A stretch of DNA of 40,625 bases from Escherichia phage Pipis. The position numbers and the translations under genes are program-made. Positions 15,388 through 16,039 of the stretch are shown piece by piece. Where the stretch lies: sequence record PV714130; one strand, 5' to 3'. The notes beneath the pieces were generated by a model. That model was given only the letters and a program-made list of their open reading frames with translations. It was not told where the DNA came from and searched no databases. The number at the start of each line of letters is the position of its first letter. The stretch's first letter is position 1.

Positions 15388-15593
15388 GTGAATACTTACG
15401 GGTCCTAGCGGCCCTTAAGTCCTGCCCGAAGACCTTCCAGTCCAACTATGTGCGCAACAACGCTGCACTTGTGGCTGAGGCTGCGAGTCGTGGACATCTA
15501 AGCTGCCTGTCTATGGATGGGCGTAACAACGGTGCGTGGGAGATTACCGCTGAAGGCACCAAGTTCCTGAACCAACACGGAGGCTGTCTATGA
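15384..15593 (+). CDS. 5.7: gene 5.7 homolog
   Basis: 69 aa; MSEYLRVLAALKSCPKTFQSNYVRNNAALVAEAASRGH closely resembles recalled T7 gp5.7. Confidence 0.65.
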   Translation: MSEYLRVLAALKSCPKTFQSNYVRNNAALVAEAASRGHLSCLSMDGRNNGAWEITAEGTKFLNQHGGCL

Positions 15594-16039
15594 AGATACC
15601 TGAAAGTCTGAAAGAGCTGGTCCTTGAAATGGGTGAGTGCGAGATGACGCACCGTAAGTATGCTGAGTTCTACGCATCTTGGTCTTACACCCTGACCGAG
15701 AAGGACGTTGAGTCCTACACCGAGTCTCCTTCTGAGGCTTATGAGTGGAGTCCGTTCATCGGACTGACCATCGTAGCTAGCGGTATGTGGGATGACAGCT
15801 ACGGCTCAGAGGTAAACGACTGGGACGTGTACCGCCAAGTTGAGAAGGAGACCGAAATGTCTTCCAACTTCTGGAGCCTGATGTCCCACCTCAACTCAGA
15901 TGACAACGACATGGCCCATGAGTTCGCCAACAAATGGCTGAAGCCTGAGGTGACTCTGGAACGTATTGAGGAGCCTAAAGTTCCCTTGATGCCATATGCA
16001 GTCGCTATGGCTACAGGAGGTCTGGACGATGGGTGCTGA
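15590..16039 (+). CDS. hypothetical highly acidic Trp-rich protein (149 aa) at gene 5.9 position
   Basis: About 30 Asp+Glu vs 11 Lys+Arg, 6 Trp; occupies the slot of the small acidic RecBCD inhibitor gp5.9 in T7 but is about three times longer. Confidence 0.5.
   Translation: MKIPESLKELVLEMGECEMTHRKYAEFYASWSYTLTEKDVESYTESPSEAYEWSPFIGLTIVASGMWDDSYGSEVNDWDVYRQVEKETEMSSNFWSLMSHLNSDDNDMAHEFANKWLKPEVTLERIEEPKVPLMPYAVAMATGGLDDGC

Follow-up and report, generated by a model that had tools for sequence, protein, structure and literature searches.

What protein occupies the gene 5.9 position of Escherichia phage Pipis, and what might it do there? In T7 the position is that of gp5.9, a RecBCD inhibitor whose parallel coiled-coil dimer, with a short N-terminal β-sheet as a brace, acts as a DNA mimic at the RecB arm (PMC9836394). 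The window, by which we mean the whole 40,625-nucleotide stretch analyzed (PV714130), comprises the complete genome of a T7-type phage in the K1F-like genus Kayfunavirus, and the 1.3 kb around the locus is 95.5% identical to Escherichia phage vB_EcoP_F. A preliminary description, made from the letters of the genome, had noted an acidic, Trp-rich protein between gene 5.7 and the exonuclease gene and had suggested that it is either an expanded gp5.9 or a different anti-nuclease or anti-defense DNA mimic.

The flanking genes bear out the position. The upstream border is a gene 5.7 homolog (15,384–15,593, plus strand; phrog_1334) whose product is 77% identical to T7 gp5.7, and a homolog of gp5.5 (PF11247) also lies upstream. 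The downstream border is the gene 6 5′–3′ exonuclease (16,029–16,898, plus strand; PF02739 and phrog_107), which is 51% identical to T7 gp6.

Two HNH_3 homing-type endonuclease genes are also present in the window (14,672–15,097 and 18,288–18,698, both plus strand). The first shares 113 nt with the DNA polymerase gene (12,613–14,784) at the 3′ end of the latter and is missing from the otherwise near-identical vB_EcoP_F, where a 52-residue ORF is found instead; in K1F, an HNH gene is located inside the split polymerase gene. Two records named 'Staphylococcus phage MBBL139' (OR786095.1) and 'Enterococcus phage EFA-1' (MT350292.1) are 88–90% identical to Pipis over the region of interest, and either their host labels are wrong or the records are contaminated, probably.

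The gene and its product

The gene (15,590–16,039, plus strand) runs from an ATG to a TGA and encodes 149 residues. Its start overlaps the stop of the gp5.7 gene as ATGA, and a Shine–Dalgarno sequence, read as GGAGG at 15,579–15,583 (plus strand), precedes the ATG by 6 nt within the sequence GGAGGCTGTCTATGA. The product is 100% identical to the annotated hypothetical protein F_33 of vB_EcoP_F, and pairwise dN/dS values for the gene among Kayfunavirus copies are 0.08–0.21. Its own ribosome-binding site, the ATGA overlap and these ratios together indicate a real, expressed protein-coding gene under purifying selection rather than a chance ORF. At the other end, comparison with K1F and vB_EcoP_F places the true start of gene 6 at 16,029, 11 nt inside the ORF, and not at the first in-frame ATG at 15,996. 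The Shine–Dalgarno sequence of gene 6 (GGAGG, 16,016–16,020) lies within the DNA that encodes the C-terminal tail of the protein upstream.

The product contains 30 Asp and Glu, 11 Lys and Arg and 6 Trp, in exact agreement with the preliminary description, together with 3 His, and has a predicted mass of 17.2 kDa, a pI of 4.26 and a net charge of −19. Asp and Glu make up 20% of its residues, and as a small protein that is rich in Asp/Glu and low in pI it resembles the DNA-mimic class in composition. Among the 53 ATG-initiated ORFs of at least 60 residues on the plus strand, its net charge per residue (−0.128) is the second most negative, and its Trp fraction (4.0%) is the highest of those with at least 100 residues. 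Only an Ocr homolog (967–1,470, plus strand) is more negative, at −0.186 per residue. This 167-residue protein is the most acidic of the genome (40 Asp/Glu versus 9 Lys/Arg) and matches the ocr profile PF08684 over residues 8–94 (E = 1e-29), a profile to which our protein gave no match in a Pfam scan. T7 Ocr is 117 residues long, and the Pipis homolog has a C-terminal extension of about 70 residues that is absent from it.

An AF2 model built with the family alignment is confident (mean pLDDT of 81.6, with values of 84–94 over most of residues 1–120) and matches no solved fold. Residues 1–88 (15,590–15,853, plus strand) form a predicted α/β domain, hereafter the N-domain, with the order H-E-E-H-H-E-E and a pLDDT of 84–94. 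This domain carries the conserved motifs EHRKY(S)EFY (residues 20–28) and G(M)WSDSYG (residues 65–72) and a conserved acidic i/i+4/i+8 stripe, E5/E9/E13, on one face of its first helix. Residues 89–118 (15,854–15,943, plus strand; NFWSLMSHLNSDDNDMAHEFANKW) form a predicted helix–loop–helix, with helices at 89–100 and 107–116, that we call the SHLN module. The compared Kayfunavirus copies are identical in this module, which holds the longest conserved motif of the family, SHLNxEDNxMAxEF. The last ordered element, residues 119–128 (15,944–15,973, plus strand), includes a predicted β-strand at 120–125. Residues 129–149 (15,974–16,036, plus strand) constitute a predicted disordered tail (pLDDT <50) that is limited to Kayfunavirus copies and is absent or different in homologs of ≤54% identity. 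We picture the product as a soluble, strongly acidic protein of two modules.

The locus and T7 gene 5.9 have much in common. Each gene follows gene 5.7, runs into the start of gene 6 for the exonuclease, is accessory and non-essential and encodes a strongly acidic protein (pI of 4.0 for gp5.9 and 4.26 here), and in related phages the two share one cassette slot. The proteins themselves differ. At 149 residues versus 52, the Pipis protein is about three times as long as gp5.9 and, as had been anticipated, cannot be aligned with it: BLASTP gave E >4, and hhalign of the family profile gave a probability of 0.15%. A Pfam scan at E up to 1 found no match in it to PF25708, the gp5.9 profile. The same profile, with a gathering score of 24.5 bits, is passed by T7 gp5.9 (27.8 bits), the K30 type (59 bits), flopper_55 (44 bits) and Fifi44 gp93 (51 bits). 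In predicted architecture, too, a globular α/β domain with a helix–loop–helix (modeled as a 128-residue monomer) and a disordered tail stands against a coiled-coil dimer. The absence of BLASTP, profile or PF25708 similarity and this different architecture led us to reject the idea of an expanded gp5.9. Nor does a gp5.9-like ORF, of the T7 or K30 type or otherwise PF25708-like, occur in any of the six frames of the window.

The phrog_4382 family

The protein matches phrog_4382, a phage protein family that is uncharacterized and of unknown function, over its full length (E = 1.2e-48; residues 1–130 against profile positions 6–129 of 130). A HMMER search of 1.84 billion representative proteins returned 23 matches, one of them spurious, in about 20 clusters; the real matches are 43–149 residues long and mostly 105–149. 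All copies whose context we examined reside in phage genomes or phage-like contigs. The T7-like carriers are phages of Escherichia, Salmonella, Klebsiella (Przondovirus), Dickeya, Pectobacterium, Providencia and Pantoea, and other carriers are 88-kb Ounavirinae myoviruses such as Mooglevirus. Many Klebsiella phage records have the gene, and the Przondovirus homolog, of 127 residues, has no tail. Outside the T7-like phages, the family sits in clusters for nucleotide and DNA metabolism (L004 3968–4360 in Citrobacter phage Mordin, L005 6001–6384, L006 6001–6354 and L093 5001–5333), where it lies between nrdD and nrdG or between DHFR and thymidylate synthase, or precedes a PF13482 nuclease-fold gene or a DNA ligase gene. 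Several of the non-T7-like members have an 'IPEE-I-P-H' segment in place of the SHLN module.

Acidity is a family trait. Each of the 26 aligned members has a net charge between −10 and −19, and about 15 alignment positions, including E5/E9/E13, are acidic in at least 60% of the divergent ones. Richness in Trp is partly conserved, with one to four Trp in distant members and W67 as the broadly conserved one. K23 is nearly invariant, H21, R22, Y24 and W67 are common, and the glycines G65 and G72 are invariant.

Searches of Pfam, NCBIfam and PDB sequences gave no match, either with the protein alone or with a 26-sequence profile. Clear homology to a structural protein or an unrelated enzyme family, which the preliminary description had named as evidence against its reading, was sought at the level of sequence, profile and fold, and none was found. 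Nor did sequence and structure searches show the protein to be homologous to a solved inhibitor, or to gp5.9, Gam, Abc2 or Ocr; besides gp5.9, the phage DNA-mimic inhibitors Ocr, lambda Gam and Ugi count among the nearest known systems. The searchable literature contains no mention of phrog_4382.

Some copies of the gene are damaged. One encodes a 43-residue protein that joins residues 1–18 to the tail, and a 91-residue Klebsiella form has no second hairpin (both among P0030, P0033 and P0040). Phage LS2 (MN518894.2, 15875–15970) retains an unannotated 32-residue remnant. These internally deleted and remnant copies suggest that the gene decays recurrently in some lineages.

The 5.7–6 slot and relations to gp5.9-domain proteins

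We surveyed the interval between gene 5.7 and gene 6 in 80 IMG/VR relatives retrieved through gp5.7 (loci L009–L088). Gene 6 follows gp5.7 at a distance of 3 nt where no gene intervenes, as in K1F itself, and otherwise of 39, about 200–340, 439 (the Pipis gene) or 584 nt (the Klebsiella homolog together with a 58-residue gene). The phrog_4382 family is present at 10 loci of these 80 relatives, and it occurs in roughly one in four relatives at the Kayfunavirus level (6 of 23 loci; also 55 protein-level versus 222 DNA-level matches). At least five unrelated families occupy the slot: phrog_4382, phrog_2251, phrog_12303, phrog_18166 and an acidic 50-residue PF25708 protein (59 bits) that matches phrog_6234, named 'host RecBCD nuclease inhibitor'. 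All of these cassettes begin at one junction, GGAGGCTGTCTATGA, as seen in K1F, L012, L014, L041 and L062. Because K1F and many Kayfunaviruses have no gene here, the function of the slot is evidently dispensable.

Two of the other occupants deserve description. The 58-residue gene, exemplified by Klebsiella phage SH-Kp 152410 gp26 (L003 2871–3047), belongs to phrog_12303; there it is an extra gene between the phrog_4382 homolog and the exonuclease gene, and in other relatives it is the sole occupant. At L080 (3332–3694), a 120-residue acidic protein with a Cys-rich N terminus matches phrog_18166 and has a weaker match to a PHROG that bears the name 'ribonucleotide reductase'.

Genes of the PF25708 gp5.9 type lie directly upstream of the exonuclease gene in T7, in K30 and Klebsiella phages and in Xanthomonas phage XAJ24, a distant member of the Autographiviridae. 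Their occurrence in so distant a phage indicates that gp5.9 before the exonuclease is an old arrangement and, by this comparison of gene orders, the Pipis gene is one of the replacements of gp5.9.

A second connection to gp5.9 came from the SHLN module. Residues 90–115 weakly match phrog_6163, over only the first 26 profile positions (E = 0.0036), and the K30-type gp5.9 matches the same profile in a different part. The phrog_6163 members from Chaseviridae have an 'LLSHLNAEDNxMAxEF' module at the N terminus and a gp5.9 domain after it. Such SHLN–gp5.9 fusions are E. coli phage flopper_55, Erwinia phage Y2 gp58, Fifi44 gp93 and a 69-residue metagenomic protein (L102). Residues 92–116 of the Pipis protein align with residues 3–27 of flopper_55 (hhalign probability of 94.8%, E = 4.9e-8, 48% identity over 25 residues), and an HMM built exclusively from phrog_4382-type sequences of the Pipis family scores 40 bits for flopper_55, 43 for Y2 gp58, 34–35 for Fifi44 gp93 and 34 for the 69-residue protein. 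The gp5.9 domain of the last is a precomputed PF25708 match, and Y2 gp58 matches a gp5.9-domain HMM that we built. The fusions and the Pipis protein thus have the SHLN helix–loop–helix in common, but in the fusions it is N-terminal to a PF25708 domain and there is no N-domain, whereas the Pipis protein has no gp5.9 domain. No triple fusion of N-domain, SHLN module and gp5.9 domain was found among the relatives detectable in the 1.84-billion-protein HMMER search, in which no match is longer than 141 residues except for one spurious repeat protein. This modular link between phrog_4382 and gp5.9 appears unreported in the literature searched.

The N-domain has relatives in the same phages. Profile comparison with the Y2 gp59 family (phrog_24684, which includes Fifi44 gp94 and a protein of E. 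coli virus TH53) gave an hhalign probability of 96.2% (E = 2.8e-9, 79 columns). A Foldseek search of BFVD matched Y2 Gp59 with a probability of 0.99, and an independent AF2 model of Y2 gp59 has its secondary-structure elements in an order identical to that of the N-domain. A direct profile scan of the Pipis protein gives no phrog_24684 match, and these comparisons place it as a superfamily-level relative of the family rather than a member. The Y2 gp59 family is likewise uncharacterized; it differs from the Pipis protein in sequence (about 13% identity), in having a 'VTETITVTKWKPI' extension instead of the SHLN module, and in location, being beside or replacing the SHLN–gp5.9 gene downstream of dUTPase and not upstream of an exonuclease gene.

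These N-domain homologs and the gp5.9-domain genes are closely associated. In Y2 and on L102, the N-domain homolog directly follows the SHLN–gp5.9 gene with an 8-nt overlap, and Fifi44 has the same gene order; in Loessnervirus, the N-domain protein and the gp5.9-domain protein coexist. The Carltongylesviruses flopper and TH53 have near-identical flanks at this site (dUTPase 95%, downstream gene 100%), and the slot between them holds the SHLN–gp5.9 gene in flopper and the N-domain gene in TH53. At the level of sequence and gene order, the Pipis family is tied to inhibitors of the gp5.9 type in four independent ways: through one module in common, one coupled pair of genes and two same-slot alternations in unrelated phage families.

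The gp5.9 domain also occurs as the C terminus of longer proteins with unrelated N-terminal modules, as in Bacillus PBC2_145 (L100 964–1332) and Rhizobium IG49 (L101 1018–1314). PF25708-like domains are widespread, with more than 120 Pseudomonas Pakpunavirus records, and phages of Acinetobacter, Xanthomonas and Bacillus provide further examples. The domain appears to be portable as a unit.

Candidate functions

The shared SHLN module, the pairing and swapping of N-domain and gp5.9-domain genes, the slot, the lack of a recognizable gp5.9 gene in this genome, the conserved acidity and the nuclease, ligase and nucleotide-metabolism genes that neighbor the family in unrelated phages lead us to favor, tentatively and with rather less than even confidence, a protein that antagonizes RecBCD, or a related DNA-end nuclease of the host, independently of gp5.9. 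On this view, a K1F-like phage carries the gene in its class II (DNA-metabolism) region as an accessory cassette that can be exchanged, and the encoded protein would bind and neutralize a host DNA-end-processing nuclease, most likely RecBCD, filling the role that the unrelated coiled-coil gp5.9 has in T7, T3, K30 and XAJ24, and the linear phage genome and its replication and recombination intermediates would be protected. [quoted passage not shown] Action as a DNA mimic is plausible given the conserved acidity.

Of the two suggestions in the preliminary description, then, the expanded gp5.9 falls away, and a different anti-nuclease or anti-defense protein gains comparative support from the SHLN module shared with gp5.9 fusions, from the N-domain homologs adjacent to or swapped with them in Chaseviridae and from the PF25708 genes in the same slot, which leaves that interpretation partly supported as a whole. 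Position alone is weak evidence, and it counts against the antagonist reading that the slot also takes phrog_2251 and phrog_12303, which have no gp5.9 link. The empty slot of K1F and many Kayfunaviruses, the unrelated fusion partners of the gp5.9 domain in PBC2 and IG49, the coexistence of both proteins in Loessnervirus and the absence of homology to known inhibitors in our searches count against it as well.

A broader form of the antagonist proposal is possible, although we regard it as doubtful: phrog_4382 and the Y2 gp59-like proteins may together be an unrecognized family of inhibitors of RecBCD or another host DNA-end nuclease, with a predicted fold that has no solved match. They would form a modular toolkit with gp5.9, in which N-domain, SHLN module and coiled coil are shuffled as fusions, coupled pairs and mutually replacing cassettes, and the SHLN loop would be a portable contact to the host target.

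The protein may also be an anti-defense or host-takeover factor with a different host target, such as another DNA-binding defense complex or nuclease, an SMC-type complex or a guard system, its co-localization with gp5.9 reflecting shared counter-defense slots. We consider this somewhat unlikely, but several observations fit it. The slot is a general cassette hotspot with its five or more unrelated occupants, and the gene is patchy even among close Kayfunavirus relatives. gp5.9 itself has more than one target, as it also acts on MukBEF (PMC7617805). Its domain fuses with diverse modules and, given the unrelated partners in PBC2 and IG49, a fusion partner need not share the target of gp5.9. The coexistence of the two proteins in Loessnervirus suggests complementary rather than identical targets; cooperation would also fit, and simple redundancy fits less well. 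A different target sits less well with the common SHLN module and with the two independent same-slot swaps, which form a more specific pattern than generic co-localization in an island would give, and our searches yielded no alternative target candidate.

The genomic neighborhoods raise the prospect of an accessory factor that serves DNA metabolism on the phage side instead of inhibiting a host protein, and that might, for example, partner or regulate the gene 6 exonuclease, a ligase or nucleotide-pool enzymes. The 11-nt overlap couples the gene translationally to gene 6, and relatives are found directly upstream of the PF13482 nuclease-fold gene or DNA ligase and between DHFR/thymidylate synthase or nrdD/nrdG genes. 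The neighboring enzyme varies by lineage, however, and K1F and many relatives with the same exonuclease lack the gene. T7 gene 5.9 overlaps gene 6 in the same way, yet gp5.9 is no exonuclease subunit. As such a role would also leave the links to a host-directed inhibitor domain unexplained, we judge it improbable. A binder of small ligands, either a sponge for nucleotide immune signals or a sensor of the nucleotide pool with the H-R-K-Y and W-S-D-S-Y-G hairpin motifs as its pocket, is very improbable: the conserved basic and aromatic residues K23, H21, R22, Y24 and W67 do adjoin G65 and G72, and nucleotide-metabolism genes are frequent neighbors of the family, but there is no fold or sequence similarity to a known sponge or nucleotide-binding protein, the motifs are at β-hairpin positions, where glycines are commonly structural, and the gp5.9 links are not accounted for.

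We regard the Pipis protein as a good candidate for a new host-nuclease inhibitor and, on the genomic comparisons made here, as a well-founded, testable lead rather than a demonstrated mechanism. Kayfunaviruses of K1-capsule E. coli and Przondoviruses of Klebsiella are widely used therapy candidates, and part of them carry the gene. If RecBCD or another host nuclease is neutralized, the protein would add a new inhibitor architecture beside Gam, gp5.9 and Abc2, with an effect on host range and on the triggering of abortive systems that guard RecBCD, such as retron Ec48 and OLD-type systems. The sharing of modules offers a concrete, testable case of counter-defense proteins built from exchangeable parts and a handle on the uncharacterized Y2 gp59 and phrog_6163 families.
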